A stretch of DNA of 64,000 nucleotides from an uncultured Actinomycetota bacterium (GTDB lineage Bacteria; Actinomycetota; Actinomycetes; Mycobacteriales; Pseudonocardiaceae), in contig CAWFMI010000004.1 of the NCBI GenBank assembly GCA_963816995.1, positions 95,973 through 159,972 of the forward strand, given 5' to 3'. The first letter of the stretch is position 1. Each line of letters begins with the position of its first letter. Below the pieces are notes generated by a model. That model saw only the letters and a program-made list of their open reading frames with translations, was not told where the DNA came from and ran no database searches. Shown one piece after another: positions 1 through 19,662 of the stretch. Position numbers and translations under genes: made by a program.

Positions 1-239
1 GCCAGCTGGTCGGGCGGAGATCCACGCCGCTCGCGACGCTCACCCCTCGCGAGCGCGAGGTGCTGGAGCTCGTCGCCGAGGGGCGGTCCAACACCGCGAT
101 CGCGGCGGCGTTGTTCGTCTCCGAGAAGGCGGTGGGCAAGCACATCAGCAGCATCTTCGGCAAGCTGGACCTGCCGCCGTCGGACGACGACAACCGCCGC
201 GTCCGTGCCGTCCTCGCGTACCTGCAGGCCGTCACCTGA
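1..239 (+). CDS. LuxR/NarL-family response regulator, C-terminal HTH part (5-prime end lies outside the window)
   Basis: The frame ending at TGA 237-239 reads ...LTPREREVLELVAEGRSNTAIAAALFVSEKAVGKHISSIFGKLDL..., a LuxR-type HTH signature. Confidence 0.8.
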   Translation, partial: QLVGRRSTPLATLTPREREVLELVAEGRSNTAIAAALFVSEKAVGKHISSIFGKLDLPPSDDDNRRVRAVLAYLQAVT

Positions 240-260
240 GCGCGACTACCCTGGAGCCCC

Positions 261-1337
261 GTGTCACTCACCCTCGGCATCGTCGGCCTGCCCAACGTCG
301 GCAAGTCGACGCTGTTCAACGCCCTCACCCACAACGAAGTGCTCGCGGCGAACTACCCGTTCGCGACGATCGAGCCCAACGTCGGGGTGGTGCCGCTTCC
401 CGACCCGCGCCTCGACGTGCTGGCACGCCTGTTCTCGTCGGCGCGCACGGTGCCCGCCACCGTGTCGTTCGTCGACATCGCGGGCATCGTGAAGGGTGCG
501 TCCGAGGGGGCGGGGCTGGGCAACAAATTCCTCGCCAACATCCGCGAGTCGGACGCCATCTGCCAGGTCGTGCGCGTGTTCGACGACCCGGATGTCGTGC
601 ACGTCGAGGGGCGTATCGACGCCGCCGGCGACATCGAGACGATCTCCACCGAGTTGATCCTCGCCGACCTCCAGACCCTGGAGAAGGCCGTCCCGCGCCT
701 GCAGAAGGAGGCGCGCACGCAGAAGGACCGCCGTCCCGTGCTGGAGGCCGCGGAGCGGGCCGCCGAGATCCTCAACGGCGGCACCACGCTGTTCGCGGCC
801 GGCGTCGACCGCGAGCCGCTGCGGGAGCTGTCACTGCTCACCACCAAGCCGTTCCTCTACGTCTTCAACGCCGACGAGGCGATCCTCTCCGACGAGGGGC
901 GCCGCAAGGAGCTCGCCGCGCTGGTCGCTCCGGCCGACGCGGTGTTCCTCGACGCCAAGGTGGAGGCCGAGCTGCTGGAGCTGGACGACGAGGAGGCGGC
1001 CCGCGAGCTGCTGGAGTCCATCGGCCAGGAGGAGCCGGGCCTGCACGGCCTCGCCCGCGCCGGCTTCCACACGCTCGGGCTCCAGACCTACCTCACGGCG
1101 GGCCCCAAGGAGTCCAGGGCGTGGACGATCCGCAAGGGCTCCACTGCTCCGCAGGCCGCCGGGGTGATCCACACCGACTTCGAGCGCGGCTTCATCAAGG
1201 CCGAGATCGTGTCCTTCGACGACCTCGTGGAGGCCGGGTCGATGTCAGCGGCGAAGGCTGCGGGCAAGGTGCGGATGGAGGGCAAGGACTACGTCATGGC
1301 CGACGGTGACGTGGTGGAGTTCAGGTTCAACGTGTGA
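261..1337 (+). CDS. ychF: Ribosome-binding ATPase YchF (Obg-like family)
   Basis: 358 aa with GTG start. G1 motif GIVGLPNVGKSTLFNALT. C-terminus ...GKDYVMADGDVVEFRFNV is typical of YchF. Confidence 0.95.
   Translation: MSLTLGIVGLPNVGKSTLFNALTHNEVLAANYPFATIEPNVGVVPLPDPRLDVLARLFSSARTVPATVSFVDIAGIVKGASEGAGLGNKFLANIRESDAICQVVRVFDDPDVVHVEGRIDAAGDIETISTELILADLQTLEKAVPRLQKEARTQKDRRPVLEAAERAAEILNGGTTLFAAGVDREPLRELSLLTTKPFLYVFNADEAILSDEGRRKELAALVAPADAVFLDAKVEAELLELDDEEAARELLESIGQEEPGLHGLARAGFHTLGLQTYLTAGPKESRAWTIRKGSTAPQAAGVIHTDFERGFIKAEIVSFDDLVEAGSMSAAKAAGKVRMEGKDYVMADGDVVEFRFNV
1311..1337 (+). repeat. ychF 3-prime terminal 27-mer, copy A (functional gene end)
   Basis: GTGGTGGAGTTCAGGTTCAACGTGTGA; near-identical copies at 2622-2649, 4162-4189 and 5047-5074. 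Confidence 0.9.
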
Positions 1338-1524
1338 GGGACGGCCTTCTTGCTGGCCACAGAGTTCGACGATGGCCTCGGTGAGCTGCTGTGCAGGCGG
1401 GCATCCTCTGCTCCGGTCCGCAAGCCGTTGCGGCGCCCGACTCGCCTCTGGTGAGACGCGCCTCGGTGGGTAACGAAGACGCATGTCAAAGCGTTGGAAG
1501 GTTTGAACCGTCTGAGTGGTTCGG

Positions 1525-1569
1525 CGTGCGACTTGTCGGTGCACCGTGCGACATTTCGGTTCGACAAGT
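1525..1569 (+). promoter_or_regulatory. Possible operator upstream of the first TA pair
   Basis: 8-bp inverted repeat ACTTGTCG (1531-1538) / CGACAAGT (1562-1569), plus direct repeat GTGCGAC (1525, 1546), ending 19 nt before the antitoxin start. Confidence 0.3.
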
Positions 1570-1587
1570 ACTGGGGAGGTGAGCATC

Positions 1588-2142
1588 GTGACCGTGCAGA
1601 CGCCGGATGTGAGTGTCCACGACGTCGTTGGCTACATCAAGGAGCAGCTGCCGGAGGCGTCCGCCATGCAGCGGCACAAGCTCGCCTACTACGCGCAGGC
1701 CTGGCATGTGACGTGGGAGGGCCGGCCGCTGTTCCCCGAGCGAATCGAGGCATGGGAACACGGGCCAGTGGTGCGCGCTGTCTGGTCGGCCGAGAAGTAC
1801 GGGCCTCCCCCTGTGCCGGCGCCGCTGGACACCCACTCCCGCCACGTCGTGGATGCAGTGATCGCCTTCTACGGGCATATGACGGCGGCGACCTTGCGGG
1901 CGCTCACGCACATGGAGGCTCCGTGGATCATTGCGCGACATGGGTTGCCTGAAGGCGCCAACTGCGAGGACGAGATTTCAGTCAGCGACATGCGCCGGTT
2001 CTACACACGCAAGGCGATCTTGCGGGAGCAGACGCCGACTCGGCCGATCGAGGACGACGATCCTCCCCTGGAGGCGACGCTCCGTCTGGCTGATGAGGAG
2101 ATCGCTCGCTGGCGCGAGGCATTGAACAAGCTGGCGCAGTAG
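1588..2142 (+). CDS. Panacea-domain (DUF4065, SocA/GepA-like) antitoxin
   Basis: KLAYYAQAWHVTWEGRPLFPERIEAWEHGPVV matches the DUF4065 core. GTG 1588 lies 8 nt after GGGGAGG; the listed ORF start 1516 is probably too far upstream. Confidence 0.7.
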   Translation: MTVQTPDVSVHDVVGYIKEQLPEASAMQRHKLAYYAQAWHVTWEGRPLFPERIEAWEHGPVVRAVWSAEKYGPPPVPAPLDTHSRHVVDAVIAFYGHMTAATLRALTHMEAPWIIARHGLPEGANCEDEISVSDMRRFYTRKAILREQTPTRPIEDDDPPLEATLRLADEEIARWREALNKLAQ

Positions 2143-2520
2143 TTGGCACTCTGTCTCTCGCTTGAGGCCGTCAAGGCGATCCACCGGCGAGTCGCCCCAG
2201 GTCACGTCCTGCTCGACGAAGCCTCTCTGCTCGCGTCTCTCGCGCGGCCGATGCAGGGAGGTTTCAGTCGGGACGAGTTCTACCCGACGGTGATCGAGAA
2301 GGCAGCGGCGCTGCTGCACAGCCTGGCTCGCACACAGCCGTTCTCCGACGGAAACAAGCGCGTCGCTTGGGCGAGCTGCGTGACCTTCCTCAGGCAGAAT
2401 GGCCTGATGGTCAGTCCGTTGATCAGTCAGGACGAGGTGGTGGAGTTCGTCCTCGACATCGCCAACAACGCGTACGAGGCAGAGGACGTCGCGTTGCGCC
2501 TGCTGGAGTGGGTGCTCTGA
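2143..2520 (+). CDS. doc: Fic/Doc-family toxin (death-on-curing type)
   Basis: 125 aa with HSLARTQPFSDGNKRVAW, the Fic/Doc active-site motif. The TTG start directly abuts the TAG stop of the upstream gene. Confidence 0.8.
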   Translation: MALCLSLEAVKAIHRRVAPGHVLLDEASLLASLARPMQGGFSRDEFYPTVIEKAAALLHSLARTQPFSDGNKRVAWASCVTFLRQNGLMVSPLISQDEVVEFVLDIANNAYEAEDVALRLLEWVL

Positions 2521-2621
2521 CGCGCGTACTCTCGCCGGTCGTCCACCGGTGATGTTGGACTGCCGCGTGCAGGTCCGATGCGCCCCGCCGCCTTGGCTCA
2601 ACACGTTGATCAGCGACGTAG

Positions 2622-2671
2622 CTTGGTGGAGTTCAGGTTCAACGTGTAATTCCGTTGCGGTTCAACGTCTG
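2622..2671 (+). repeat. ychF 3-prime end copy B with a 22-nt right extension
   Basis: CTTGGTGGAGTTCAGGTTCAACGTGTAA then TTCCGTTGCGGTTCAACGTCTG. In the ychF frame it encodes LVEFRFNV-stop. Confidence 0.85.
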
Positions 2672-3059
2672 ACGCCGTCGGGACTGCTCACCAGGTTGCC
2701 GACGTACTGGATCTCTGTGCACGTAGACCCACCATCGCATGCTGGACGCTCCAGCTCGTGAGCGGCGATCCCGATGACTGCCGAGCCGGCAGGGCTGGAG
2801 CTGCGACGGCGGCGGGTGACGCTTCTCCGCTCTCGCCTGCCGGGAACCTCCGTGGCCAAGGCCTGCAGTTGATGGATGCTCAGCTCAGTCCGCCGGTCCA
2901 GCGTCGTCACCGGCCCCGTCGACCTGCTGTCGCCCCTCCTCCCGTAGCCGTGTGGTGGCCGCCAGCTGGTGCTTCTACGTGCGAAGCGTGCTACACATGC
3001 TGCGGCTGCTGCGGTTATTTCAGCTACAGTGACCTCTCGGGAGCAGGAGGTGCGGGTCG

Positions 3060-3524
3060 ATGAGCAGGGCAACAGTCAAGACGGCCACGCCCGACGAGCA
3101 GGATGCTCGGCTGGCACGCGATGCCCTGGTTCGCGTCCGGCGCTACCTCCTGGAGCATCCTGGTGGCCCGCACCAGGCGGTGCAGGTGAGGGCTGAGGAG
3201 GCCGACGCAGAGCAGCTGTCGTTGCCCCGATCGGTGGTCGAGGCCGTAGCGGCGATCCTGGCGCACATGGCAGCCGGTCGGGCTGTGTCGGTGGTCCCTC
3301 ACAACGCCGAGCTGACCACGCAACAGGCGGCCGACCTGTTGAACGTCTCGCGTCCGTTCCTGATCGGTCTGCTGGAAGCAGAGGAGATCGAGCATCACAG
3401 AGTCGGTTCCCACCGACGGGTCCCCGCCGCCTCGCTTCTCGACTACAAGCGTCGCGATGATGCGCGGAGGCGGGGCGTCGCCGACGACCTGACCGCCCTC
3501 AGCCAGGAGCTTGGGCTCGACTGA
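3060..3524 (+). CDS. Excisionase/MerR-like HTH antitoxin paired with the PIN toxin
   Basis: 154 aa with LTTQQAADLLNVSRPFLIGLLEAEEIEHHRVGSHRRV (excisionase-family HTH). SD-like GGAGCAGGAGG upstream. Overlaps the downstream PIN gene. Confidence 0.65.
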   Translation: MSRATVKTATPDEQDARLARDALVRVRRYLLEHPGGPHQAVQVRAEEADAEQLSLPRSVVEAVAAILAHMAAGRAVSVVPHNAELTTQQAADLLNVSRPFLIGLLEAEEIEHHRVGSHRRVPAASLLDYKRRDDARRRGVADDLTALSQELGLD

Positions 3525-4101
3525 TGGGTTCGTGGTCATCTACGACGCCAACGTGCTGCATCCGCCCGTTCTGCGGGATGTGCTCATCCGGGTGGCGCAG
3601 GGTGGGCACGTGCAGGCCAGGTGGACCAACGCCATCCTGGACGAGACGTTCAAGTCCATCCAGGAACGCCGTCCCGACCTGGACCCGGTCAAGCTCGACC
3701 GTACTCGTGAGCTGATGAGCGGTGCCATCCGTGATGTGTTGGTGACTGGCTACGAACCCCTCATCCCGGCCGTCACGCTGCCCGACCCGGACGACCGGCA
3801 CGTCGTCGCGGCTGCGATCCGGGCTCGGGCGCAAGTGATCGTCACCGCGAACGTGCGGGACTTCCCCGTCGAAGCGCTGAGCCCGTGGGATGTCGAGGCG
3901 AAGACGCCGGACGAGTTCCTGCTCGACCAATTCCATCTGAGCGGTCCGGGGCTGTACGGCGCCGTCCAGCGCGTCGCGGATAGCTGGAGCAATCCGCCCG
4001 GCACAGTCAGCGACGTCCTCGACCGGCTCGAGCGCAGTGGCTTGGTCGAGACCGCTGCGCTTCTGCGCGGTTGGCAAGCGCCTGGCTGGCAGCAAGGCTG
4101 A
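3511..4101 (+). CDS. PIN-domain ribonuclease toxin
   Basis: Acidic PIN residues lie in VIYDANVL, PDPDDRHVVAAAI and VTANVRDF. Start is uncertain (TTG 3511 or GTG 3532). Confidence 0.7.
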   Translation: MGSTDGFVVIYDANVLHPPVLRDVLIRVAQGGHVQARWTNAILDETFKSIQERRPDLDPVKLDRTRELMSGAIRDVLVTGYEPLIPAVTLPDPDDRHVVAAAIRARAQVIVTANVRDFPVEALSPWDVEAKTPDEFLLDQFHLSGPGLYGAVQRVADSWSNPPGTVSDVLDRLERSGLVETAALLRGWQAPGWQQG

Positions 4102-4140
4102 AGCGAAGAGCGGAAACTGGTCGCTCGAAGGTCAAACGCG

Positions 4141-4211
4141 TGAGGTTGTTCTACTGCGGACCTTGGTGGAGTTCAGGTTTAACGTGTAGGTCCGTTGCGG
4201 TTCGACGTCTG
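4141..4211 (+). repeat. ychF 3-prime end copy C with left and right extensions
   Basis: TGAGGTTGTTCTACTGCGGAC-CTTGGTGGAGTTCAGGTTTAACGTGTAG-GTCCGTTGCGGTTCGACGTCTG. The right part matches copy B and the left part matches copy D. Confidence 0.85.
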
Positions 4212-4263
4212 GCAGGCCGGAATCCGGGCCTGCATGTCCTACTCTTGTACTACACTGCTGCTC

Positions 4264-4536
4264 ATGGTTCAGGTTCCGGTGCGCGAGCTGAACCAGGACA
4301 CCGCGGGTGTGCTGGCTCGGGTCGAGAGCGGCGAGACGGTGGAGATCACCCGCCATGGTCGCGTGATCGGGCGCATCGTGCCGGCCGGCGTGGGGGAACT
4401 CGACGACTGGGTCGCCCAGGGCCGGGCGGTTCCGGCCACGATCGCCGGGCCGATCCCCATGCCGGCCCACCGGGCGGAGGCGGGTTCCGAATCCGGGCAA
4501 CTGCTGCGGGATCTGCGCGACGAGGAGCGTTGGTGA
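4264..4536 (+). CDS. Phd/YefM-type antitoxin (VapB-like)
   Basis: MVQVPVRELNQDTAGVLARVESGETVEITRHGRVIGRIVP is a typical Phd/YefM N-terminus. Its stop overlaps the GTG of the VapC gene (GTGA). Confidence 0.75.
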   Translation: MVQVPVRELNQDTAGVLARVESGETVEITRHGRVIGRIVPAGVGELDDWVAQGRAVPATIAGPIPMPAHRAEAGSESGQLLRDLRDEERW

Positions 4537-4943
4537 TCTACCTCGACTCTGCTGCGCTGGTCAAACTGGTCCGGGAGGAGGACGAGACCCGCGCGCTGGT
4601 GACTTGGCTGAACGAACGTGCGGGCCAGCGCCTGGTCGCGTCTGTGCTCGTGGACGTCGAGGTTCCGCGTGCGTTGCGTCGCAGTCAACCCGGGGTGCTG
4701 GGAGCCGTGGCGGCGACGCTGGCCCGGATCGACCGCATCGAGCTGGATGCAGCGGTCCGTGCCACCGCCGCCGCCTACGTCGATCCATTGCTCCGCTCGC
4801 TCGACGCCATCCACTTGGCAACTGCCGAACAGCTCGTAGCCTCGGGGAAGGATGTGGGCGCGTTCGTCACCTATGACAAGCGCCTCGCCGAGGCGGCCCG
4901 TTCCTGTTCCTTCTCCGTGGTGGCGCCGGGCGCCGGGGTATGA
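4533..4943 (+). CDS. vapC: VapC-type PIN-domain toxin
   Basis: VIYLDSAALVKL..., SLDAIHLATA and FVTYDKRLAEAA supply the conserved PIN aspartates. Translationally coupled to the antitoxin. Confidence 0.8.
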   Translation: MIYLDSAALVKLVREEDETRALVTWLNERAGQRLVASVLVDVEVPRALRRSQPGVLGAVAATLARIDRIELDAAVRATAAAYVDPLLRSLDAIHLATAEQLVASGKDVGAFVTYDKRLAEAARSCSFSVVAPGAGV

Positions 4944-5025
4944 GGAGCCGCGTCGTGTCGCCAACCTCAGAGGCTCGTCAGGAGGGGCCTGGCCTGACTC
5001 CCGGTGCCCAAGGTCTGATCGGTGC

Positions 5026-5074
5026 TGAGGTTGTCCGGCTGCGCAGCTTGGTGGAGTTCCGCTGCAACGTGTGA
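5026..5074 (+). repeat. ychF 3-prime end copy D (most diverged) with left extension
   Basis: TGAGGTTGTCCGGCTGCGCAG-CTTGGTGGAGTTCCGCTGCAACGTGTGA. Encodes LVEFRCNV-stop. Confidence 0.8.
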
Positions 5075-5121
5075 CCGGTGGCCAGGTCCCACACCCGACG
5101 CATCCGCCCGATCGCTGCTCG

Positions 5122-5955
5122 TCACTGCGATCCGGCGGCCACCAGCCGTGCGGTGATGGGTTCGAGCTCGGCGACCAGCTCGGCGAGCTCGGCGGCGGAG
5201 AGTGCGTCGTAGGGCGGGGCGGCGAGCTCGTCGGTGAGGGCTTCGATGCGTTGCTTGGTCTCGCGGCCGGCGTCGGTGAACCAGCCGTCGGCGTCGACGA
5301 GCCCGCGCTCGCGCAGCCCGTCCATGACCTCGGCCAGCCGCTCCTTCGGCAGGTGGTGGATGCGCCCGAACGACTCCGGCGGGTGGATGCCCTGCTCCAG
5401 CGCGGACAGCACGTGGGCCTCCGCACCGCCGATGCGCGCGCCGAGGAGAGCGGCGATGTGCCCGTCCCCGCGGTGCTCGCGGAGCATGGTCGCGGAGTGC
5501 CACAGCCGGGTGACCGGGTCGCTGGGCACCGGAAGGGTGCGCCACCCGGCGTACATCACCCGACCTTGCGTGGGCGCGCTCGTCGCGGCCTTGGTGGTCA
5601 GGTCGGCGGCGCGCGCCAGGCCGGGGGACTCGGCCAGCTCCTCGCCGACAATTCGCCGTACGGAGGCCGCGCTGCCTCGTCGCCACGCGGCGAAGGAGAC
5701 CTCCGGCGGGATCGTTTCCCACGCGCTCGGGATGTGCCGCGCTGCCTCCCCCTCGGCGAAGCTGTAGAAGGCCGCGTGCACGACCTGTGCCGGCACCCGT
5801 CCCAGTGGCGCGGCGCGACTGGCGAAGTAGCCGTCCCAGTAGGTGCGGTGGCCGAGCGCGGCCAGCTCCTCGTTGGACTCGTCGGCGAAGTAGGTGACCA
5901 GGCAGATCGGTTCGAGGAGTTCGAACATGCGACGGGCGGTTCTCGCGGCTGGCAT
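5122..5955 (-). CDS. Conserved actinobacterial protein of unknown function (resembles what I recall as the SCO6745 family; possible C-terminal winged-helix)
   Basis: 277-aa ORF with coding-like composition. The family assignment is from memory only. Confidence 0.5.
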   Translation of the reverse strand: MPAARTARRMFELLEPICLVTYFADESNEELAALGHRTYWDGYFASRAAPLGRVPAQVVHAAFYSFAEGEAARHIPSAWETIPPEVSFAAWRRGSAASVRRIVGEELAESPGLARAADLTTKAATSAPTQGRVMYAGWRTLPVPSDPVTRLWHSATMLREHRGDGHIAALLGARIGGAEAHVLSALEQGIHPPESFGRIHHLPKERLAEVMDGLRERGLVDADGWFTDAGRETKQRIEALTDELAAPPYDALSAAELAELVAELEPITARLVAAGSQ

Positions 5956-6089
5956 GACTGATCAGACCAGGCGAGCGCCTCGGACTCATCGGTGCCGTCG
6001 GGGAGAAATCGGCAATTCCCTCGCCTGCCCGGGCGCCCTCGCGGCGGCGATCGCTGGTCGAAGGGCGGCTGCGTCCGTCGTGACGCGCC

Positions 6090-7541
6090 CTAGTTCGGTG
6101 CCTGGAAGCCGCCGATCTCCTGCTCGAGCAGTTCGGCCAGCCGCAGCGGGGTGCGGTCCTCGAACATCGGACCGATGAGCTGAACTCCCACCGGCAGGCC
6201 CTCGGGGGACCGGCCCGCGGGTATGGCGGTGGCGGGCAGGCCGGGCATGGTGGCCAGGCCGGCCCAGACGAGCTGGTCGAAGTACGGGTACTCGGCCCCG
6301 TCGATGTCGATGCGCCGTTCCAACGGATTGGGGCTGTGGTCGTGCGGGAACGCGGGCGTCGGCGTGATCGGGCACACCACGGCGTCGAACTCGGCGAACA
6401 GCTGCCGCCAGCCGTGACGGTGGAGCTCGCGACGGTTGTACACCTCGAGCCAGTCGCGGTGGCTGAACACCATCCCACGCAGCCGCACCGCGTCGAGACT
6501 CTGGTCGTCCGCGCTCAGGCCGGCGGCGCGGGTCCGCAGCTGCTCGTACGCGTCGACGGGAAAACGCGCGACAGAGCCGGAAACCAGCAACTGCATGTAG
6601 AGCCGCGCGGCCTCGGCCAGGTCGGGCAGCAGCCGCCTGTGCCGTTCGACTCGGGCTCCGCCGCCGGCAAGTGCCTCGGCCACCCGGCGCACGCCCGCCC
6701 GCACGGCGGACCCGGTCGGGATGAGCGGGTGCTCGTCGAGGACCAGGACCCGGAAGTCGTGGAGCTGCTCGTGGCGCGCGGGCGGCAGCGTCAACCCGTA
6801 CGCCACACCGTGCGTCAGCGGGTCCGGTCCGGCCATGACGTCGAGCAGGAGCGTGAGATCGCGGGCGGTGCGCGCCATCGGCCCGACGACGGCGAGGTCG
6901 AGGTCGACCGGCAACGGCGCTGCCGGCGGCGCGACCATGCCGCGGGTCGCCGCCAGCCCGAGTGTCGGCTTGTGCGCGTAGACGCCGCAGAAATGCGCGG
7001 GGGTGCGCAGCGAGCCGGCGAGGTCGGAGCCGATGGACAGCGCGCCGAACCCGGACGCCAGGGCCGCCGCTGACCCGCCGGAGGACCCGCCCGACGTGCG
7101 ATCGTGATCCCACGGATTGTTGGTGGTGCCGTAGATCTCGTTGAAGCTCTGGATGTCTTGCAGCCCCAACGGCACATTGGTCTTGCCGATCACCACCGCG
7201 CCGGCGGCCTTGAGTCGCGACACCTGTACCGCGTCCTCGGCCGGCATGTGGTTCCGGTGCGGCGGCATGCCCCAGGTCGTGGGCAGCCCGGCGACGTCGT
7301 AGGACTCCTTGACCGTGACCGGAATGCCGAACAGCGGCCGGTCCTCGCCGCGGGCGCGCGCCTGGTCGGCGTCGCGCGCGGCGGCCCGCGCACGGTCGAA
7401 GTCCGGCACGCAGATCGCGTTGATCACCTTGTCTTCCCGCTCGATACGGGCGATCGCCGCGTCGGTGAGTTCCGTCGAAGTCACTTCACCGGCGCGCAAT
7501 GCAGTCGCGAGCTCTTCCGCCGTCCGAAAATTCCACTCCAT
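6090..7541 (-). CDS. Amidase (amidase-signature family)
   Basis: GGSSGGSAAALASGFGALSIGSDLAGSLRTPAHFCG signature. I prefer the start at MEWNFRTAEEL (7541) over the ORF start 7637. Confidence 0.85.
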   Translation of the reverse strand: MEWNFRTAEELATALRAGEVTSTELTDAAIARIEREDKVINAICVPDFDRARAAARDADQARARGEDRPLFGIPVTVKESYDVAGLPTTWGMPPHRNHMPAEDAVQVSRLKAAGAVVIGKTNVPLGLQDIQSFNEIYGTTNNPWDHDRTSGGSSGGSAAALASGFGALSIGSDLAGSLRTPAHFCGVYAHKPTLGLAATRGMVAPPAAPLPVDLDLAVVGPMARTARDLTLLLDVMAGPDPLTHGVAYGLTLPPARHEQLHDFRVLVLDEHPLIPTGSAVRAGVRRVAEALAGGGARVERHRRLLPDLAEAARLYMQLLVSGSVARFPVDAYEQLRTRAAGLSADDQSLDAVRLRGMVFSHRDWLEVYNRRELHRHGWRQLFAEFDAVVCPITPTPAFPHDHSPNPLERRIDIDGAEYPYFDQLVWAGLATMPGLPATAIPAGRSPEGLPVGVQLIGPMFEDRTPLRLAELLEQEIGGFQAPN

Positions 7542-7669
7542 TGATTCGACGCTACCAGTCGGCTGCAGTCGTGCGATCCCACACAAGTCGACCACATCTG
7601 CCGGAAAGGTGGAAGCGGGTGTCATTCGAGATAGCAAATCCCCAGGTCAGTGGGGTCAACGTGGATCAA

Positions 7670-7683: not shown

Positions 7684-7846
7684 GGCATGAAATGCCGCTT
7701 CGGGCAACGGGATGTACGTCTCAATGTCATCGTATTCCGGTCCGGCCAGATGTCATTCGTCCGACCGCCGGCGATGCGCGGCGGGATCGGCGCCGCCCTG
7801 GTTCTGATCTCCGCGCATTTTTCGGTTGATCCGGGCGGAGCCAGGA

Positions 7847-8995: not shown

Positions 8996-9619
8996 GTGGC
9001 AGATGTCTGGGCACTGGTGCACGCGGAGCGTGCAGCCCTGATCGACGACCTCGAGCACGTCGACGATCACAGGTGGGAGGTGCCGTCGCTCTGCGGGGAG
9101 TGGACCGTGCACGACGTGGTCGCACATCTCGTGGACTCGGCTCGGACGACGCGCCTCGGTTTCCTGGCCGATCTTGCTCGGGCGAGGTTCGACTTCGATC
9201 GTTACAACGCCCGCGGAGTGGAGCGCGAGCGCGGGGCGTCACCCCAGGAGACGCTGGAGCAGCTCCGTCGGGTGGCGTCGCGCACGTCAAGTCCTCCGGC
9301 GCCCATCGACACCCGCCTCGTCGAGGAGGTCGTCCACGGCGAGGACATCCGCCGCCCCTTGGGGCTCACCCGCTCCTATCCGGAGGAAGCCGTCGTCCGA
9401 TCACTTCGCCTGCAGGCGCGCACCCCGGTGTCATTCGGCGGCGCCAAGGAGCTCGTGGCGCGGGTCCGGCTGACGGCAACGGACGCCGACCTGGCGATCG
9501 GCGACGGTCCGGACGTCACTGGCTCCGCACTCTCGTTGCTCCTGGCCGTCTCCGGGCGGCGGGTGGCGCTGGACGACCTCGAGGGGCCGGGAGTCGACGC
9601 GCTGACGTCCCACGTCTGA
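8996..9619 (+). CDS. DinB-like, mycothiol-dependent maleylpyruvate-isomerase-family protein
   Basis: WALVHAERAALIDDLEHVDDHRWEVPSLCGEWTVHDVVAHLV matches the N-terminal domain of this family. GTG 8996 follows GAAGGGGAG; the ORF opens at 8942. Confidence 0.7.
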   Translation: MADVWALVHAERAALIDDLEHVDDHRWEVPSLCGEWTVHDVVAHLVDSARTTRLGFLADLARARFDFDRYNARGVERERGASPQETLEQLRRVASRTSSPPAPIDTRLVEEVVHGEDIRRPLGLTRSYPEEAVVRSLRLQARTPVSFGGAKELVARVRLTATDADLAIGDGPDVTGSALSLLLAVSGRRVALDDLEGPGVDALTSHV

Positions 9620-9626
9620 TCGCGTG

Positions 9627-11375
9627 TCACGTCGCGGGGACGTCGTCCACCGGGATCTCTGCCTCGCCGCCCTCTTCGGCACCGCCCTCGGTGCCGCCCT
9701 CCTCCTCGGTGCCGCCGGCCGGCGGGACGCCAGGGTCCACCGGCGGGACTTCCGCGACGGTGGTGGTCTCAGGGGGCGGGGAGGCTGTGGTGGTCGTCGT
9801 TGTCGTGGTGGTGGTGGTTGTCGGATCGTCCGGTGGGTCCTCGGCGGCCGGCTGCTCGGCGGGAACGCCGCCGCCCTGGTTCTGCGGCCGCTGCGGGCGG
9901 ACGCCGCCCTGGTTCTGGGCAGGCACCTGGTTGACGGGGGCCGGGGCGGCCTCCTCGGGAGCCGGGGCCTCCGTGAGCTGGGGGACCTCGACGACGGACG
10001 TCGTCGTGGTGCCGCCCGTGGGGGTCGGGGTCGTGCGGTCGGGGCCGTACAGCAGGGCGGCGCCGATCGCGGCCGCGACCAGCAGGCCGCCCGCGCCGAA
10101 CACCACGGCCGGCCGGCGTGAGACCGATGTCGGCGGCAGGGTGGGGGCGAGCTGAGGCACGGGCGGCCGCGGCGGGTCGGTGATCGGCGGCTGGAATCTC
10201 GCCTGGGCGGCCGGTACCGGTACGGGCTGTACGGGCTGGACGGGTGTCGGCCGGGGCTGGAAGGCCGGCGCGACCGGTGGGATCACCACCGCGGGCCACG
10301 ACTCCGCGCGCGGCGAGATCGACAGCGCGGCGCCGAGGGCGATCGCGTTCTTCGGGTCGGCGTCCACCGCCACCGGGCGGTCGAACGCGGCCGACACCAG
10401 TTGGGCGACCAGCGGGATCCGCGAGGACCCGCCCACGAGCAGCACGGCGCTCAGATCCGCTGGAGTCAGGCCGGCCGACGCCACGGCGCGGTGCAGCGCG
10501 TCGACGCTCTCCTCGAGCTGCGGGCGGATCATCGTCTCGAACTCGCCGCGGGTCAGGCGCACCGCGGTCTGCAGCCCCGGCAGCAGGACAGCGATCCGCA
10601 CCTCGGTGTCGGCCGACAGCGCCTCCTTCGCCTCCTTGCACTCGCGACGCAGCCGGGATACGGCGGACACCACGGTCTCGTCGGCGGGATCGAGCTGGTC
10701 GAACGCCGCCCCGACGGCCTCGCGGACGTGCATGAACACCAGGTCGTCGAAGTCGACGCCACCGAGCCGGTCGATGCCTTCCGGCTGGCCGAGCAACGCG
10801 AACGTGCCGTTCTTGCGGACGACCGCGGAGTCGAACGTGCCACCGCCCAGGTCGTAGACCGCGATCGTGGACCCGCGCTCGACGCGTTCCGCCGCCGCGT
10901 AGCTGAGGGCGGCTGCCTGCGGCTCGGCCAGGAACGTCACGTCGAGGCCGCGGGTGGCCAGCGCGCGATGCAGCAGATCCTTCTTGTGCGGTCCCCACGA
11001 TGCCGGGTGGGTCAGGGCGATCCGCCGGGCCCGGGAGCCCTCGCGCTCGGCCACCCGCTCGACGACCCAGGCCACCAGCATCGCGGCCAGCTCGTGGGCC
11101 GGGTACGGCCTCCCGCCGACGACCAGCGGGGTCTCGTCGCCCACCTGCCGCTTGAACTCGCGGACCACGCGGTCCGGATCGGTCGTCGCCCGCCGCTCGG
11201 CCGCCTCGCCCACCAGGACCGTGCCGTCGGGAGCGAGGTAGAGCACGGACGGCACCTGGACCGCGCGATCGCCGAGGGACACCATCTCCGGGTCGGCGGG
11301 CTGCTGCTCCGTTGCGCGCGACACCGACGCAGCCGTATACGTCGTCCCGAGATCGATCCCGAGTTGATAGCTCAT
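9627..11375 (-). CDS. Hsp70-family ATPase domain fused to a Pro-rich linker, one TM helix and a low-complexity tail (no Hsp70 substrate-binding domain)
   Basis: GIDLGTTYTAASV, VYDLGGGTFDSAVV and LLVGGSSRIPLV are the Hsp70/actin-fold phosphate and adenosine motifs. After about residue 365 come P-rich sequence, the hydrophobic segment PAVVFGAGGLLVAAAIGAALLY, then a T/P/E/G-rich tail including an 11-residue Thr run. Confidence 0.85.
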   Translation of the reverse strand: MSYQLGIDLGTTYTAASVSRATEQQPADPEMVSLGDRAVQVPSVLYLAPDGTVLVGEAAERRATTDPDRVVREFKRQVGDETPLVVGGRPYPAHELAAMLVAWVVERVAEREGSRARRIALTHPASWGPHKKDLLHRALATRGLDVTFLAEPQAAALSYAAAERVERGSTIAVYDLGGGTFDSAVVRKNGTFALLGQPEGIDRLGGVDFDDLVFMHVREAVGAAFDQLDPADETVVSAVSRLRRECKEAKEALSADTEVRIAVLLPGLQTAVRLTRGEFETMIRPQLEESVDALHRAVASAGLTPADLSAVLLVGGSSRIPLVAQLVSAAFDRPVAVDADPKNAIALGAALSISPRAESWPAVVIPPVAPAFQPRPTPVQPVQPVPVPAAQARFQPPITDPPRPPVPQLAPTLPPTSVSRRPAVVFGAGGLLVAAAIGAALLYGPDRTTPTPTGGTTTTSVVEVPQLTEAPAPEEAAPAPVNQVPAQNQGGVRPQRPQNQGGGVPAEQPAAEDPPDDPTTTTTTTTTTTTASPPPETTTVAEVPPVDPGVPPAGGTEEEGGTEGGAEEGGEAEIPVDDVPAT

Positions 11376-11649
11376 GCGGCCCCCCTACGCCCGGTGTCGA
11401 TCGGAGCCTCCATGGCCGCGTGCCTGCGGTCATCCCCCGGCCGGGAAGTCGCGGTCCGATCCCCTAAACCCCCCAAGGCGCGCGACCACCCGGGTCCGAT
11501 CCGGAGCCCCTCTCGACTCCGTCGCATCCCGGATTGCAGGCCGCGCCGGAGTTCGTAGGGTTGCTGGCAATGCGCCGGATGTGCGGCGCGAGTGGCCGGG
11601 GGTGAGCGTGTCAGCCGATCCGAGCGCCTCCATCTGGGAGGTCACGCGG

Positions 11650-12246
11650 ATGATCCTGGACAATCCCGGGGTCAGCCCGTCTGCGATCGCGCACGCGCAC
11701 GGGTTCAGCGCGGTCGAGGTGGCGGAGCTTCTCCCGATCTTCCTCGACAATCTCCGCACCGACTTCTCCTCGGCCGACGGGCCCGCCCCCGCGCTCGTCC
11801 CGCCGGCGCCGCAGCCCGGCGAGACGCCCGAGGAGCACGCCGACCGCTACCTGCGCGATCTTGCTCAGCACGAACACCTCGACGTCGTCGGCTACGACAC
11901 GCTCGGTGCCACCGTCGGTGACCTGGACGGCGCCGATCTGGATAGCGCCGACCCCGATGGCGACCTCGACGGCGATCTCGGTCAGGACCCGACCTTCCTC
12001 GACCCGGCGCTGCCGGAGGTCCCCGGCGAGCTCGTCGAGCTCGCCGACGCCGCGGCCGAACATCCGGATGCGGACCTGCACGAGGCCGGCCCGGTGCACG
12101 ACCTCGCGGAGGACGACCCGTTCGCCGCGTCAGCGCCCCCCGAGACCGGCTCCCCGGGCGCCGACGACTCCTTCGACGACGATGCCTCCCTCGACGGTGC
12201 AGCCGCCGGCGCGGACGACTCCGGCGAACCGTTCGCGATGAGCTAA
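11650..12246 (+). CDS. Hypothetical polyacidic protein
   Basis: ATG 11650 lies 9 nt after GGGAGG. The first ~35 aa are ordered-looking (GVSPSAIAHAHGFSAVEVAELLPIF). The rest is Asp/Glu/Pro/Ala-rich (DLDGADLDSADPDGDLDGDLGQD...). No family recognised. Confidence 0.5.
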   Translation: MILDNPGVSPSAIAHAHGFSAVEVAELLPIFLDNLRTDFSSADGPAPALVPPAPQPGETPEEHADRYLRDLAQHEHLDVVGYDTLGATVGDLDGADLDSADPDGDLDGDLGQDPTFLDPALPEVPGELVELADAAAEHPDADLHEAGPVHDLAEDDPFAASAPPETGSPGADDSFDDDASLDGAAAGADDSGEPFAMS

Positions 12247-12417
12247 CACCCCCGACCCGGCAACCGAGTTCTACACCGCGCGCACTGTGTATCAGCGCCC
12301 GTTCGGGCGTCTCCTGTACCCGGTCGGATCGCTACCCTGATCGGGCTCCCCGGGCTCGCAGCGACAGCGTCAGGTACGGCGATCGGCGACGACGTCGACA
12401 CGGGAGGGCATGCCGCG

Positions 12418-15039
12418 GTGCAGACAACGGGCCGGACCGTGATGACCGCGGTGAAGGTCGAGAGCGCTGCCTCCGACAGCGCGCTCGTCGGCGCGCCCGC
12501 TGCTCGAAGGCTGTACCGGGAGATCGCGTCAGCGCCCGCGCTGCCGCGCCGCACCGTGGTGGTGGGACCGGGCGGCTGTGGCAAAACCGTGCTGCTCGAC
12601 ATGCTGGGCGATCTCTACCGTGGCGCCGGGCTCGCGGTCCGGCGGGACGTTCCGGCGGACGCCGAGCCGGTGGACCCGAACGTCGTGCTGCTCGTCGACG
12701 ACGCTCACGAGCTCGACGAGGCAGCACTGGGGCGGCTGCGGCTGTGGGCCGCCGATCCCGGGGCACAGGTCGTGCTCGCCCACCGGCCGTGGCCGCGGAG
12801 CGGGAAGCTCGCCTCGATCGTCGTCGCGTTCGGTGCGAAGAGGGGGCCGCTCTCGCTGGGCCCGCTGGATCGTCCCGGCGTCGCCGCCCGCGCCAACCTG
12901 CTGCTGGGGGAGCGGCCCACGGCGGAGCTGGTGGACCTGGTGTTCGAGCAGACGGGGGGCTCTCCGGACCTGGTCGACCGCCTGCTGGTGGGGCTGCGCG
13001 ACGAGCGGGCGCTCGATCGGCTCGGTTCCGGTGGTGAGCCGCCGGCCGCCGTCGTCCGGCAGCTGGGATACGAGATCGACGCGCAGCCGACCCGGGTCCG
13101 AGAGCTGCTGCTGGGCCGCACCGTGGGCGCCCCCATCGATCCGGACGTCCTCGGCGCGCTGCTCGACGTGGCCCCGGGGGCGGTGGGGGAGCTGCTCGAC
13201 CAGGCGGCCGCCACCGGTCTGCTCGACCCCGACGGCGGCGTCGTGCCGCTGGTACGGCACGCGCTGCTGCGGGTGGTCCCCGCTGCCCACCGCCTGGTGC
13301 TGCAGCGGCAGCTGGCCGAGATCCAGCTCGATGCCGGCGGCAGCGTGCTCGTCGCGGCGCGGGGTCTGATCGGCAGTGGGGCGACCGGCACCCGGGTGGC
13401 CACCGCGTTCGAACGTGCGGGTGACGAGGCGCTCCGCGAATGCCTTCCGGCCGCGACGGATCTGTTCGACGCCGCGGTGGAGGCCGGTGCGGCACCGCTG
13501 CCGCTGGCCGCGCGGCGGGCGGAGGCGGCGATGCTCGTCGGCGATCTGGACGCGGCGCTGCGGCGGGCCGATCAGGTGCTCGCCGAGCCGGCTTCGGCGG
13601 GGAGCGATGCGGTGGAGCGGGCAGTGGCGGTGGCCGCGGCGGTGCTGGCCCACCGCGGGATGCTGAGCCGCAGCGCCGATCTGTACCGGTGGCTCGCCGC
13701 GCAGCCGTTCGGTGGTCCGGCCCTGCTCGCGGTGCCCGCGCTCGTCGGCATCGGTGCGCTCGACGAGGCGCGCGACGTCCTGGCCGCGGCGCCGGGCGGC
13801 GCCGGCCAGGCACCCACCCTGCTGGCAGGTGCGGAGGCACTGCTCGCCCGTGGGGTCCACGACACCGTCGCCGGCAACCCGACCGCCGCGCTCTCCCAGC
13901 TCACGCGCGCGGCCGTGTTGTTGGAGTCGTCCGGCCGGGCGGCGCTGCTCCCGGACACGCCCGCGGCGCTGGCCGCACTGGTCGCGATCCACTGCGGGGA
14001 GCTGGACGTGGCGCAGTCCGTGCTGGGCCAGGCCGTCGCCGCGGGCCTCGGCGGACCCGCCGTCGTGGCACGGCACCTCCTCCTGCAGGCGCTGCTCGCC
14101 ATGCACCGCGGATCGGGCGCGCAGGCGCGGGCGCTGCTGCAGTCGGCGTCCGGTCGGGGGCGGCTCGAGCCGCGGGACGAGCTGCTGGCCGCCGCGCTCG
14201 ACGTCGGGCTGGCTCGCAGGGCGGGCGATCTCGCCGGCCTGCTGACCGGGTGGCGCCGGGCTCGGGAGGCCATCGTCCGGCACCCGATAGACCTGTACTC
14301 GCTGCAGCCGCTCGGCGAGCTCGTGGTCGGGGCCACCCGGCTGAACGAGCAGGGCTGGGTGCAGCCGTACCTGGACGAGGCCGAGGCGCTGCTCGACCGG
14401 CTGGGGGACCCGCCGTTGTGGGCGGTGTCGCTGCACTGGTCCGGGCTCCAGGCCGCGATCGGGTCCGATGCGGGCGCCGCGGCCCAGCGGCACGCGGCCG
14501 TCCTGGACCGCATGGCTCCCACCAGCCGGTACGCCGCCGCCGTGGCCACCGCGGGCCGGGAATGGCTGCGGAGCCTCGGCGGTGAGGTGGACGCGGACGC
14601 GGTGGAGGCCGCGGCCCGCGGCCTGCACGCCGCCGGCCTCAGCTGGGAGGGTGGGCGCCTGGCCAGCCAGGCCGCGATCCGCTGCCGGGACCGCAAGAGC
14701 ATGAACGCCCTGCTCGGCTGTGCCCGCGCGCTGCAGGCCGGCGCCGAGCAGCCCAGCACGGCACCTGCGGATCCGACGCCCGGCCGCGGGCAGCCCGTGC
14801 GCCGGGTGAAGGTGCCCGAGCAGGCGTCGGAGAGCTCGGCCGGCGCGATCAGCGGTCGGGAGCGGGAGGTGGCAGAGCTCGTCCTGTCCGGTCTCACCTA
14901 CAAGCAGATCGGTGAGCAGCTGTTCATCTCCGCGAAGACCGTGGAGAACCACGTCGCCCGGATGCGTCAGCGGCTGGGTTCCGGCAGCCGGGGCGAGCTC
15001 TTCGCCCACCTCCGCATGCTGGTGGGCGAAGGGCACTAG
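12418..15039 (+). CDS. Large ATP-binding LuxR-family regulator (LAL/MalT-like STAND ATPase)
   Basis: 873 aa with Walker A VVVGPGGCGKTVLLD near the N-terminus, a long helical Ala/Leu-rich middle and a C-terminal LuxR HTH REREVAELVLSGLTYKQIGEQLFISAKTVENHVARMRQRLG. Confidence 0.9.
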   Translation: MQTTGRTVMTAVKVESAASDSALVGAPAARRLYREIASAPALPRRTVVVGPGGCGKTVLLDMLGDLYRGAGLAVRRDVPADAEPVDPNVVLLVDDAHELDEAALGRLRLWAADPGAQVVLAHRPWPRSGKLASIVVAFGAKRGPLSLGPLDRPGVAARANLLLGERPTAELVDLVFEQTGGSPDLVDRLLVGLRDERALDRLGSGGEPPAAVVRQLGYEIDAQPTRVRELLLGRTVGAPIDPDVLGALLDVAPGAVGELLDQAAATGLLDPDGGVVPLVRHALLRVVPAAHRLVLQRQLAEIQLDAGGSVLVAARGLIGSGATGTRVATAFERAGDEALRECLPAATDLFDAAVEAGAAPLPLAARRAEAAMLVGDLDAALRRADQVLAEPASAGSDAVERAVAVAAAVLAHRGMLSRSADLYRWLAAQPFGGPALLAVPALVGIGALDEARDVLAAAPGGAGQAPTLLAGAEALLARGVHDTVAGNPTAALSQLTRAAVLLESSGRAALLPDTPAALAALVAIHCGELDVAQSVLGQAVAAGLGGPAVVARHLLLQALLAMHRGSGAQARALLQSASGRGRLEPRDELLAAALDVGLARRAGDLAGLLTGWRRAREAIVRHPIDLYSLQPLGELVVGATRLNEQGWVQPYLDEAEALLDRLGDPPLWAVSLHWSGLQAAIGSDAGAAAQRHAAVLDRMAPTSRYAAAVATAGREWLRSLGGEVDADAVEAAARGLHAAGLSWEGGRLASQAAIRCRDRKSMNALLGCARALQAGAEQPSTAPADPTPGRGQPVRRVKVPEQASESSAGAISGREREVAELVLSGLTYKQIGEQLFISAKTVENHVARMRQRLGSGSRGELFAHLRMLVGEGH

Positions 15040-18331: not shown

Positions 18332-18416
18332 CGCCACAGCTCCCCCTTGTTCACGACGGACGGCCGACCCAGCGCCCCGGAGGATGCTGAGCCGGCCTGG
18401 TGGTCCGGGATCTGGA

Positions 18417-19409: not shown

Positions 19410-19662
19410 TGAGATCGTCTCCTCGATCGTTTTCCGATTCGCGCTCCGGCGATGTGAGGAAAAGCTAGGAGCCAGCCACCGCCTGGTCATCGGGGATCGG
19501 GCGAGCGCACAACCGGCGAGCTTGTGGGGTCGACCGGTCGTTGGGGGATGAGGGATTGGGGGATCGGTCGCCCCCCGACATGGCGCGCTGCGGGTGTGAC
19601 CGACACGGGCCGGGCGCAGCGGGAGCACGGCCTCGTCACGAGCGCGCAGGCACGGAGTCCCC

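Follow-up and report, generated by a model that had tools for sequence, protein, structure and literature searches.

In staphylococci, the large serine recombinases (LSRs) of SCC and SCCmec elements target the 3' end of rlmH (orfX), and the gene end is reconstituted on insertion; direct repeats containing this gene end bound tandem units, many of which are without a recombinase, and defence genes are enriched among them (PMC11470126). CIMEs, known from ICESt1/3 of Streptococcus thermophilus and from Streptomyces pathogenicity islands, have lost their integration and transfer genes but still have attL and attR at a gene's 3' end, and new elements that enter a retained att site produce tandem arrays by accretion (PMC5704250). 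The Int-S sites of Mycobacterium abscessus (attB-7, attB-9 and attB-17; compare Bxb1 in groEL1) have common cores of 5-8 bp, and their use disrupts the target genes (PMC8092301).

We analysed a 64-kb stretch of actinomycete DNA, referred to as the window herein, in which three toxin-antitoxin (TA) cassettes follow ychF. This array is like SCC in its location at the 3' end of a conserved gene, the reconstituted gene end, the bounding repeats, the tandem recombinase-less units and the defence cargo; it is unlike SCC in that the target is ychF rather than rlmH, the host is an actinomycete, the LSR clade appears to be a different one, and tyrosine integrases also use the site. As in CIMEs, the ychF units are flanked by attL and attR in a gene end and lack integration and transfer genes, with only TA genes present. 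Classic CIMEs, however, involve tyrosine integrases and are larger remnants, whereas the ychF units are single TA operons that may have arisen by deletion. The Int-S prophages and satellites of Mycobacterium have the same recombinase type and integrate within an ORF, as at ychF, but the ychF elements differ from the published Int-S elements in that they provide the gene with a replacement end or give it another C-terminus; neither Int-S study mentions ychF in its text (PMC8092301, PMC10654092). An integrase-free TA array at ychF had been thought undescribed, and our literature search gave no description of one, although the general principle is known from SCC and CIMEs. By analogy, the ychF array may be viewed as a fresh case of the principle behind SCC composite islands and CIME accretion.

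Copies of the ychF 3' end and the cassettes between them

The ychF gene of the window shares 87-93% amino acid identity with ychF of Pseudonocardia. Its last 24 nt, TGGTGGAGTTCAGGTTCAACGTGT, matched the forward strand at 1312-1335, 2624-2647, 4164-4187 and 5049-5072, with 0, 0, 1 and 3 mismatches, respectively. None of 100 dinucleotide-preserving shuffles contained a match, and no further credible copy was found in the 64-kb window. The original prediction had the ychF terminus recurring at 1311-1337, 2622-2649, 4162-4189 and 5047-5074, each time encoding (V/L)VEFR(F/C)NV before an in-frame stop, and computed matching and translation bore this out: the copies, A to D, encode VVEFRFNV, LVEFRFNV, LVEFRFNV and LVEFRCNV and end in TGA, TAA, TAG and TGA, respectively. 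The features of the locus are:

261-1337, + strand: ychF, 358 aa, intact; Pfam MMR_HSR1 and YchF-GTPase_C
1289-1337, + strand: copy A; attL and regenerated attB by layout
1338-2600, + strand: cassette 1; SocA_Panacea antitoxin at 1588-2142 and Fic/Doc toxin from 2143 or 2251 to 2520 (Pfam)
2601-2671, + strand: copy B; P-left, ychF-end copy (TAA) and extension at 2650-2671
2672-4140, + strand: cassette 2; HTH_17 antitoxin-like gene at 3060-3524 and PIN_3/VapC50-like toxin from 3511 or 3532 to 4101
4141-4211, + strand: copy C; P-left variant AGGTTGTTC, ychF end (AGG TTT, TAG) and extension at 4190-4211
4212-5025, + strand: cassette 3; Phd/YefM antitoxin (PhdYeFM) at 4264-4536 and VapC PIN toxin at 4533-4943 (Pfam)
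5026-5074, + strand: copy D; attR by layout, with P-left variant AGGTTGTCC and the displaced native ychF end
5122-5955, - strand: HTH_67 regulator (Pfam); GC3 0.90
6090-7637, - strand: amidase (Pfam); GC3 0.88

In copy A, the left half belongs to ychF itself (ACGTCATGG...GACG) and is followed by the surrogate right half GTGGAGTTCAGGTTCAACGTG and TGA. Within copy B, positions 2601-2647 form a 47-bp pseudo-palindrome (ACACGTTGA, 29 nt, TCAACGTGT) with perfect inverted ends of 9 nt, and it thus shares with LSR attachment sites the feature of a pseudo-palindrome of 40-50 bp. Its left half is an LSR-type P-left in which ACGTTGAT begins 23 nt upstream of GTGGAG; the variant in copy C has the identical offset. 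Copy D retains the host-typical CGC codon and the TGA stop and shows a Phe-to-Cys decay. Copies B and C are 84% identical over a common 67 nt that runs on for about 22 nt past the stop on the right, and copies C and D are 81% identical over a common 47 nt that includes about 20 nt on the left, as had been proposed for the flanks of both pairs. The differences between A and D and between A and B narrow the crossover to the interval TGGTGGAGTTC. The extension immediately after copies B and C is a degenerate second copy of the ychF end.

All three cassettes hold predicted type II TA modules, with overlapping or abutting ORFs and matching family domains, and Pfam confirmed that they belong to three different families (Panacea-Doc, HTH-PIN and Phd-VapC); the toxin of cassette 2 was also assigned to PF26343 VapC50_C in precomputed annotation. 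No further convincing ORFs or Rfam matches were found in the cassettes. The claim that each carries one TA pair and nothing else therefore stood for recognisable genes, but not for the 410-nt leader of cassette 2 (2650-3059), which has no ORF, RNA match or recognisable features. In each cassette the toxin stop codon lies 39-82 nt from the left arm of the next repeat. The array had been described as recombinase-free, and this extends beyond positions 1311-5074: neither tblastn with nine recombinases associated with ychF nor HMM searches of the window translated in all six frames found a recombinase anywhere in the 64 kb.

The cassettes are foreign by composition. Their six genes have GC3 values of 0.79-0.86 (0.83 for the Panacea/Doc cassette), lower than the mean of 0.936 (sd 0.023) for 27 reference genes of the window and the 0.955 of ychF. 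Since AGG accounts for 3.3% of Arg codons and TTT for 1.2% of Phe codons in host codon usage, the versions of the ychF end with AGG or TTT are atypical for the host, in contrast to copy D with its CGC. Judged from codon choice, the last 8 codons of ychF, with their atypical AGG Arg, appear to have been supplied by cassette 1.

Integrative elements and array variation at ychF in other actinomycetes

We compared the window with 160 ychF loci of other actinomycetes. Extra downstream copies of the ychF end, all in ychF orientation, were present in about one in five of the 160 loci. At up to 4 mismatches there were 55 such copies (160 loci plus the window), every one on the ychF strand, while a reverse-strand control gave 4 matches in the first set, each with 5 mismatches, and no match at up to 4 in the second. 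The cargo between extra copies is small; most of it is TA, Abi and other genes for defence, and single enzymes also occur. Ten of the 55 extra copies have ACGTTGAT, with up to 2 mismatches, at an offset of exactly 23 nt upstream of GTGGAG; at other offsets the count is about 0.3 each, and -23 and -18 were the only offsets at which left-arm motifs were enriched. The ten include window copies B and C, copy D matches at 3 mismatches, and the motif has the same position at three LSR-adjacent sites (L082, L084 and L089). The putative assignment of the window copies to an LSR rests on this short motif. Since the left arms are heterogeneous and only about a fifth of the extra copies have the LSR-type motif, several integrase types have contributed.

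Recombinase-bearing elements occupy the same junctions. All 8 examined members of one LSR clade adjoin a copy of the ychF end, whereas no LSR gene adjoins the attachment sites of the window. Five IMG/VR contigs contain an isolated ychF-end copy and, starting 11-21 nt from the left arm of that copy, a Resolvase+Recombinase protein of 449-530 aa. The family has 1537 members at E<=1e-30, and in three of three sampled distant LSRs (57-64% identity; Saccharothrix, M. abscessus and Kribbella) the ychF end lies 25-45 nt upstream of the start. The clade appears to differ from that of the SCC recombinases, its nearest matches in a phage collection being actinophage serine integrases at about 40% identity. 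The M. abscessus element is complete at 10.6 kb with both junctions (ychF, capsid, portal, TerL, HTH_17, LSR), and its LSR, HTH_17, TerL, portal and capsid genes make it look like the candidate Int-S PICIs (PMC10654092). Its element-derived right half is the native one lengthened by 5 nt between inner and outer motif (25 versus 20 nt to ACGT), a spacing also found in about 25 alternative ychF ends. Reportedly, structural work on the LI integrase found serine-integrase attP half-sites to be 5 bp longer than attB half-sites, and the M. abscessus right half has the relation expected of such a pair. The left half of ychF lacks the 5-nt shift, and in the window itself the right halves are spaced as in attB.

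At least three kinds of tyrosine integrase also use the ychF site, one of them in a pSAM2-like element. In Gordonia spumicola, a 9.7-kb element with RepSA, FtsK and a tyrosine integrase lies between two ychF-end copies, and a second tyrosine-integrase type directly follows the ychF stop in two loci (L004 and L045). One tyrosine-integrase type can be seen directly in decay: its fragments lie right after ychF in L006, L048, L115 and L158, and in L135 only a 57-nt arm is left, including the last ~12 integrase codons. The closest relative of the window's Panacea/Doc operon, matching over the operon only (82.5% nucleotide identity), is cargo of a larger integrative element that also encodes Prim-Pol and an integrase.

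Short repeats between single-operon cassettes without an adjacent integrase superficially recall a CALIN, and integrons and CALINs likewise hold short, mostly single-operon cassettes, often TA, between recombination sites. It is nevertheless extremely improbable that the ychF repeats are a dispersed REP or MITE, an integron-type attC array or the product of local slippage or duplication of the ychF end. Only four copies exist in the 64 kb, co-oriented and directly behind ychF, and the same holds in the 160 loci, which speaks against a generic dispersed repeat. The repeat is the end of a coding gene rather than an attC-like imperfect hairpin, and the site is associated with serine and tyrosine integrases of phage type instead of IntI. 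Slippage or duplication is at odds with cassettes that differ completely in content and are of foreign composition. The observations contradict these candidates.

The array is polymorphic among relatives rather than identical in all of them, and arrays with other cassettes were found. Homologues of cassette 3 lie behind ychF in three relatives. In L094 (~94% identical in the shared cassette; VapC 100% identical in amino acids), ychF is joined straight to cassette 3 via the right arm of window copy C, with a junction exact to the nucleotide within the core, and a different cassette follows the terminal copy. In L130, 5 kb (CHAT-AAA-TPR) separate ychF from the cassette 3 homologue (90-93% amino acid identity), after which come further TA/AbiEii cassettes; in L114 the homologue (82%) is directly behind ychF. 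None of the three window cassettes is present in L100. Alternatively, the L094 state could go back to a recombination of copy A with copy C that removed cassettes 1 and 2.

The cassette 3 homologues of L130 and L114 have diverged about as much as ychF, consistent with vertical descent, and repeats of 24-67 nt could allow rare deletion, as a fused ychF end in L130 suggests. One might therefore suppose that no site-specific recombination took place in this lineage and that the block was inherited or imported and reshuffled by homologous recombination via ychF and the short repeats. We consider this improbable, as it accounts neither for the first gain of a ychF-end copy with recombinase-type arms nor for the recombinase-bearing elements at the same junctions elsewhere, and the L094 junction is nucleotide-precise within the core.

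Probable serial integration and possible origins of the recombinase-free units

The recombinase-bearing elements, the pattern of flank sharing and the L094 junction support the original proposal of serial integration with target reconstitution, and the array probably arose in this way at a ychF attB. The ychF 3' end would be a chromosomal attB for several site-specific recombinase families in actinomycetes, its most prominent user probably being the LSR clade on prophage-like or satellite-like elements. An incoming element would recombine about 8 codons before the ychF stop, bring surrogate last codons and push the original end to its far side; ychF would remain intact because the element supplies these codons. 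In window-type elements the surrogate end would have the same layout as the native one, so that the ychF-proximal junction becomes attB-like again and the next element can insert. The newest element would thus stand beside ychF, cassette 1 being the most recent and cassette 3 the oldest. Copy A would combine ychF-left with P1-right, B P1-left with P2-right, C P2-left with P3-right, and D P3-left with the native end. Stacked elements with attL/attR hybrid sites are expected to share flanks as B and C do on the right and C and D on the left, and the polymorphism in L094, L130, L114 and L100 fits this order. The extensions after copies B and C challenge a simple stacking model, as they fall outside its account. 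We favour, with some reserve, an LSR as the enzyme that inserted the three window units.

Each unit would have lost, or never had, its recombinase and kept only a type II TA operon, the cargo presumably most likely to resist deletion and one that may also act in defence. That the recombinase-free units result from deletion rather than from mobilisation in trans has, in our estimate, an even chance of being correct. LSR genes start 11-21 nt from the left arm, and the window cassettes leave 39-82 nt between toxin stop and arm, yet clean removal of the LSR everywhere sits badly with random deletion: no LSR N-terminal remnants were detectable beside the 55 extra copies, where the coding strand scored no better than the control strand.

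This cleanness would suit minimal, recombinase-free cassettes for whose excision and integration an LSR acts in trans, encoded elsewhere in the genome or by a visiting element, a reading that we regard as possible but doubtful. Compact cassettes (0.5-1.5 kb) with conserved arms and no recombinase remnant occur in many genera, the LSR-type left arm has an exact offset, and a cassette typically carries one operon or gene, often for TA or Abi. In staphylococci, Ccr mobilises tandem ccr-less cassettes (PMC11470126); mobilisation of recombinase-less units is thus shown for SCC, whereas for the ychF cassettes it is a proposed reading only. Against it, no circular form or excision junction was seen, and integrase decay is demonstrably common at the ychF site. 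Exact-protein look-ups returned the same organism and one ~94% identical relative, with no near-identical cassette in a distant genomic background, and a HigBA cassette common to Pseudonocardia and Mycolicibacter has diverged to about the same degree as ychF. The internal junctions would moreover combine an attP-like left side with an attB-like right side, and serine integrases normally require a directionality factor for such hybrid sites. On this reading, ychF would host an SCC-like or integron-like exchange of TA and defence genes, and an HTH_17-type protein may serve the LSR as directionality factor.

Tentatively, the actinomycete ychF end might then be the docking point of a cassette-exchange system in which the widespread LSR clade acts in trans on ~47-bp attP-like sites, one on each short recombinase-free cassette. 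If so, cassettes would be excised, circularised and re-inserted, and TA and anti-phage arrays would be built and reshuffled at ychF, a functional counterpart of integrons or SCC in the actinomycete phylum. To our knowledge, integrons are essentially absent from this phylum, and the ychF array is itself unlike an integron or CALIN in having no IntI, in sites that are a coding-gene end rather than attC hairpins, and in its serine and phage-type tyrosine integrases.

The HTH_67 regulator and the amidase that follow copy D have no bounding repeat and are absent from the locus of the closest relative, L100, where synteny with the window picks up again only at 7844; the variable region therefore reaches past copy D.

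Repeat copies and cassettes behind ychF

The last 24 nt of ychF (TGGTGGAGTTCAGGTTCAACGTGT) recur on the same strand at positions 2624, 4164 and 5049 of the window with 0, 1 and 3 mismatches. These repeats (copies B, C and D, copy A being the gene's own end) separate three toxin-antitoxin (TA) units:

261-1337, + strand: ychF, intact, ending in copy A
Cassette 1, between copies A and B: Panacea antitoxin and Doc
Cassette 2, between copies B and C: HTH_17 and PIN_3 (VapC50-like)
Cassette 3, between copies C and D: Phd and VapC

No match to the ychF end occurred in 100 shuffled sequences, and every copy retains an in-frame stop, the encoded end being (V/L)VEFR(F/C)NV-stop. Pattern matching, shuffling and translation thus confirm the copies and stops of the original prediction. 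The extended similarity it had described was likewise recovered with a repeat finder: copies B and C have 67 nt in common at 84%, extending 22 nt past the stop, and copies C and D have 47 nt in common at 81%, extending 23 nt leftward. The array had also been described as free of recombinases, which was borne out and extended, as none was found in the array or across the whole 64-kb window. An Rfam search of window 1-7000 (E ≤ 1) returned no RNA family.

The cassette genes have a GC3 of 0.79-0.86, versus 0.936 ± 0.023 in 27 reference genes. Copies A-C contain AGG (3.3% of Arg codons) and TTT (1.2% of Phe codons), both rare for this genome, and copy D has the typical CGC Arg codon. When the non-coding leaders and tails of all three cassettes were compared with all fetched loci by blastn and tblastx, only matches to L094, a locus from a relative, and high-GC noise were obtained. 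The 410-nt leader before the HTH_17 gene of cassette 2 (2650-3059) is without a convincing ORF, an Rfam match or similarity to any fetched locus.

An integration hotspot at the ychF end and its recombinases

We sampled 80 ychF loci of species-representative genomes and 80 from metagenomes; the window ychF is nearest to that of Pseudonocardia (87-93% aa identity). Using a degenerate ychF-end pattern and counting matches with ≤4 mismatches that do not end a ychF gene, we found 55 extra copies in the 160 loci and the window, all on the ychF strand. As a control, the reverse strand yielded 4 matches in the first set, all at 5 mismatches, and 0 at ≤4 in the second. At least one extra copy was present in ~21 of 80 genomes and in at least 11 of the 80 contigs from metagenomes, a set with many short members. 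Prauserella, Mycobacterium and Mycolicibacter are among the taxa with arrays of 3-5 copies. The cargo between copies comprises TA genes (HigB/HigA, with a HIT-family gene in the same cassette, FitA/PIN, HEPN pairs, Doc, Phd/ParE), abortive-infection and other defence-like genes (Abi_2, AbiTii, AbiEii, HNH, a CHAT-AAA-TPR protein) and single enzymes or transporters (aldo-keto reductase, F420H2 quinone reductase, methyltransferase, hydrolase, EamA, GNAT).

In about 25 of 156 ychF genes the C-terminus reads VVEFR[FSH][GQ]xTS..K-stop and not VVEFRFNV-stop (L009-L011, L016, L021, L038, L060, L068, L075, L078, L112, L120, L128, L130, L131, L142, L144, L151, L169, L175 and L181), and a displaced native end lies downstream wherever the sequence is long enough. 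The alternative C-terminus is element-derived sequence at an attL junction, and ychF evidently withstands both replacement of its last residues by such sequence and lengthening. At L078 (16681-16750), an internal copy is extended on its left by 45 nt of ychF sequence, with 9 nt deleted. For at least one element type, then, either the crossover lies further upstream in ychF or the element brings a longer piece of the gene. On a 473-kb contig 99.9% identical to the window (L092/L095/L096; ENA ERZ25039530 contig_7571), ychF is called as two genes of 76 and 286 aa, a split that probably stems from an indel or a faulty assembly and not from a biological difference.

Recombinases of several kinds occupy this site. 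In Gordonia spumicola, the ychF end and a second copy enclose a 9.7-kb element that encodes a tyrosine integrase, RepSA and an FtsK-like protein, a gene set like that of pSAM2-type integrative conjugative elements; homologues of these three proteins were absent from all other loci. Another tyrosine integrase directly follows the ychF stop in L004 and L045, and a third kind lies beside longer ychF fragments in lower-GC phage contigs. Scanning IMG/VR with the ychF-end pattern yielded 11 contigs, in 5 of which a Resolvase+Recombinase protein of 449-530 aa is encoded next to an isolated copy, its start codon 11-21 nt from the copy's left arm (the half-site upstream of GTGGAG). At E ≤ 1e-30, this large serine recombinase (LSR) family counts 1537 members, spread over Mycobacterium, Gordonia, Nocardioides, Kribbella, Saccharothrix and other taxa; in each of the three members sampled (57-64% identity), a ychF end precedes the gene by 25-45 nt. 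With the 71-nt copy C unit as query, blastn against 50,697 phage records produced chance matches only.

A complete element is present in M. abscessus (L181; GCA_900137435.1, FSKL01000001.1, locus 9500-20600), where ychF is followed by a 10.6-kb element (capsid, portal, TerL, HTH_17, LSR), the displaced native end, a 456-nt unit and another copy. The element looks like a phage satellite (PICI-like); its LSR protein was read on 24 contigs. At L089 (IMGVR_UViG_3300010384_000122, 1386-4007), one ychF-end copy is flanked on its two sides by genes for an LSR and a tyrosine integrase, placed back to back, which suggests tandem integration of two different elements at one site.

The ychF array is one case of a widespread hotspot, and its mechanism is not new but of the known SCC/CIME type. 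With the SCC composite island it shares a probable LSR, a housekeeping-gene 3' end, end reconstitution and tandem recombinase-less units rich in defence genes; it is not a member because its target, its host and its clade of recombinases are others. The array also resembles CIME/ICE accretion (PMC5704250) and is not an integron. We set aside dif/Xer modules, Tn7-like targeting and IS200/IS605-type insertion, since the diagnostic features of those systems are absent and the repeat consists of a gene end to which serine and tyrosine integrase genes are joined. The original prediction had called such an array undescribed, and we found no account of an actinobacterial ychF attachment site in the literature, where ychF matches concern only pneumococcal prophages; the general principle is known from SCC and CIME/ICE accretion. 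Serine-integrase attB sites in M. abscessus have been reported at MAB_2445, MAB_3230 and MAB_3265; their cores span 5-8 bp, and the genes are disrupted (PMC8092301). Satellites that are candidates for carrying serine integrases come up in a later survey (PMC10654092); ychF was not found in the text of either paper.

The end of this universal gene is a conserved, apparently undescribed hotspot in Mycobacteriales, Pseudonocardiales and other actinomycetes, including M. abscessus. It is tied to a large serine integrase clade with attB inside ychF, possibly a source of new integration vectors for actinomycetes, and accounts for the build-up of TA and abortive-infection genes beside a core gene. 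In M. tuberculosis, ychF (Rv1112) may be followed by vapBC32, an arrangement that the literature search did not confirm and that carries no weight here.

Remnants or mobile cassettes

Of greater interest is whether cassettes without a recombinase are still mobile, and the site offers a tractable test case for trans-mobilisation of such units outside staphylococci. Several observations count for decay of larger elements. Fragments of the second type of tyrosine integrase lie right after ychF in L006, L048, L115 and L158, and in L135 only a 57-nt arm is left, including the last ~12 integrase codons. For the Panacea/Doc operon of the window, the closest relative (82.5% nt identity, with no similarity past the ends of the operon) is carried as cargo by an 18.7-kb element that also encodes Prim-Pol, HTH_17 proteins and an integrase. 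Other results speak against simple decay: no LSR N-terminal remnant was detected beside the left arms of the 55 extra copies above the opposite-strand control, and only 39-82 nt separate toxin stop from left arm in the window cassettes. An HRTCTRQS stretch left of copy B, considered as an LSR remnant, was taken as chance, the remnant search not exceeding its control.

Movement in trans by a recombinase elsewhere would suit the compactness of the cassettes and has a staphylococcal precedent (PMC11470126), but neither cassette circles nor identical cassettes in foreign backgrounds were found. Exact-protein look-ups of ychF and five cassette proteins returned only the same organism (ERZ25039530 contig_7571; Logan ERR11593888) and the relative L094. 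We regard such mobilisation as rather unlikely, and CIME-like, deletion-derived remnants as somewhat more likely.

Site architecture and proposed order of integration

At LSR-adjacent sites, an ACGTTGA-like sequence begins 23 nt upstream of GTGGAG, with the TCAACGT at the end of ychF as its inverted counterpart. This left-arm motif (≤2 mismatches) lies at exactly -23 in 10 of the 55 extra copies, versus ~0.3 per other offset; window copies B and C are among the ten, and D fits with 3 mismatches. Copy B is a 47-bp unit with perfect 9-nt inverted ends. The only other enriched offset was -18, where the ACGTTG motif stands 18 rather than 23 nt from GTSGAG in three copies:

L034, 12047
L111, 2257
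L112, 13493

The 5-bp gap between the two offsets would fit the difference expected between attB-type and attP-type serine-integrase half-sites. At the M. abscessus attL, the element-derived right half equals the native right half plus 5 nt between inner and outer motifs, and attP and attB half-sites of serine integrases differ by this 5-nt relation. The window-type junction has a full surrogate end with native (attB-type) spacing, so copy A would be attB-like again, permitting stacking. The M. abscessus junctions suggest that the palindrome is centred at the GT beginning GTGGAG; given these junctions, a centre 2 nt left of GTGGAG was dropped. Many copies bear a degenerate second copy directly after the stop (for example TAG GTCCGTTGCGGTTCGACGTCTGG), found at window 2650-2671 and 4190-4211 and in L029, L030, L035, L057, L063, L064, L076 and L094. 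This second copy shares homology with the right half of the alternative, attP-type kind (GGATCAACGTCTGG) at LSR attL junctions. The ychF end of L130 resembles a fusion of core and second copy.

We would place the crossover inside TGGTGGAGTTC. If incoming elements P1, P2 and P3 gave cassettes 1, 2 and 3, copy A would combine the ychF left with the P1 right arm, B the P1 left with the P2 right, C the P2 left with the P3 right, and D the P3 left with the native right. Related right arms of P2 and P3 would explain the common right flanks of B and C, and related left arms those on the left of C and D; the host-typical Arg codon would occur in D only because D keeps the native right end. Cassette 3 is then predicted to be the oldest, with cassettes expected to be younger the closer they are to ychF.

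Sequences from relatives agree with this order. In L094 (Logan SRR29004047), which matches cassette 3 at 94% nt with a VapC identical at 100% aa, the ychF end is joined to cassette 3 via the right arm also present in window copy C, and a different TA pair follows the terminal copy; this state may instead reflect deletion of cassettes 1 and 2 by recombination between copies. In L114, a Phd/VapC homologue directly follows ychF. L130 carries one at 84% nt, equal to the identity of its ychF, bounded by copies, with 5 kb inserted between it and ychF and AbiEii, HigA-like and VapBC units beyond. L100, with the closest ychF (93% aa), has none of the three cassettes. Together with the recombinase-bearing elements at the same site, these relatives support the original prediction's reading of serial integration, which interpreted the array correctly in outline.

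The ychF-proximal unit of the Pseudonocardia-like L130 array encodes a 1108-aa CHAT-AAA_16-TPR protein (12358-15684) of defence-like STAND/protease architecture. After copy D, the window contains an HTH_67 regulator and an amidase (5122-7637) with slightly low GC3 (0.90 and 0.88), both missing in L100, and the variable region probably reaches past the last recognisable repeat.
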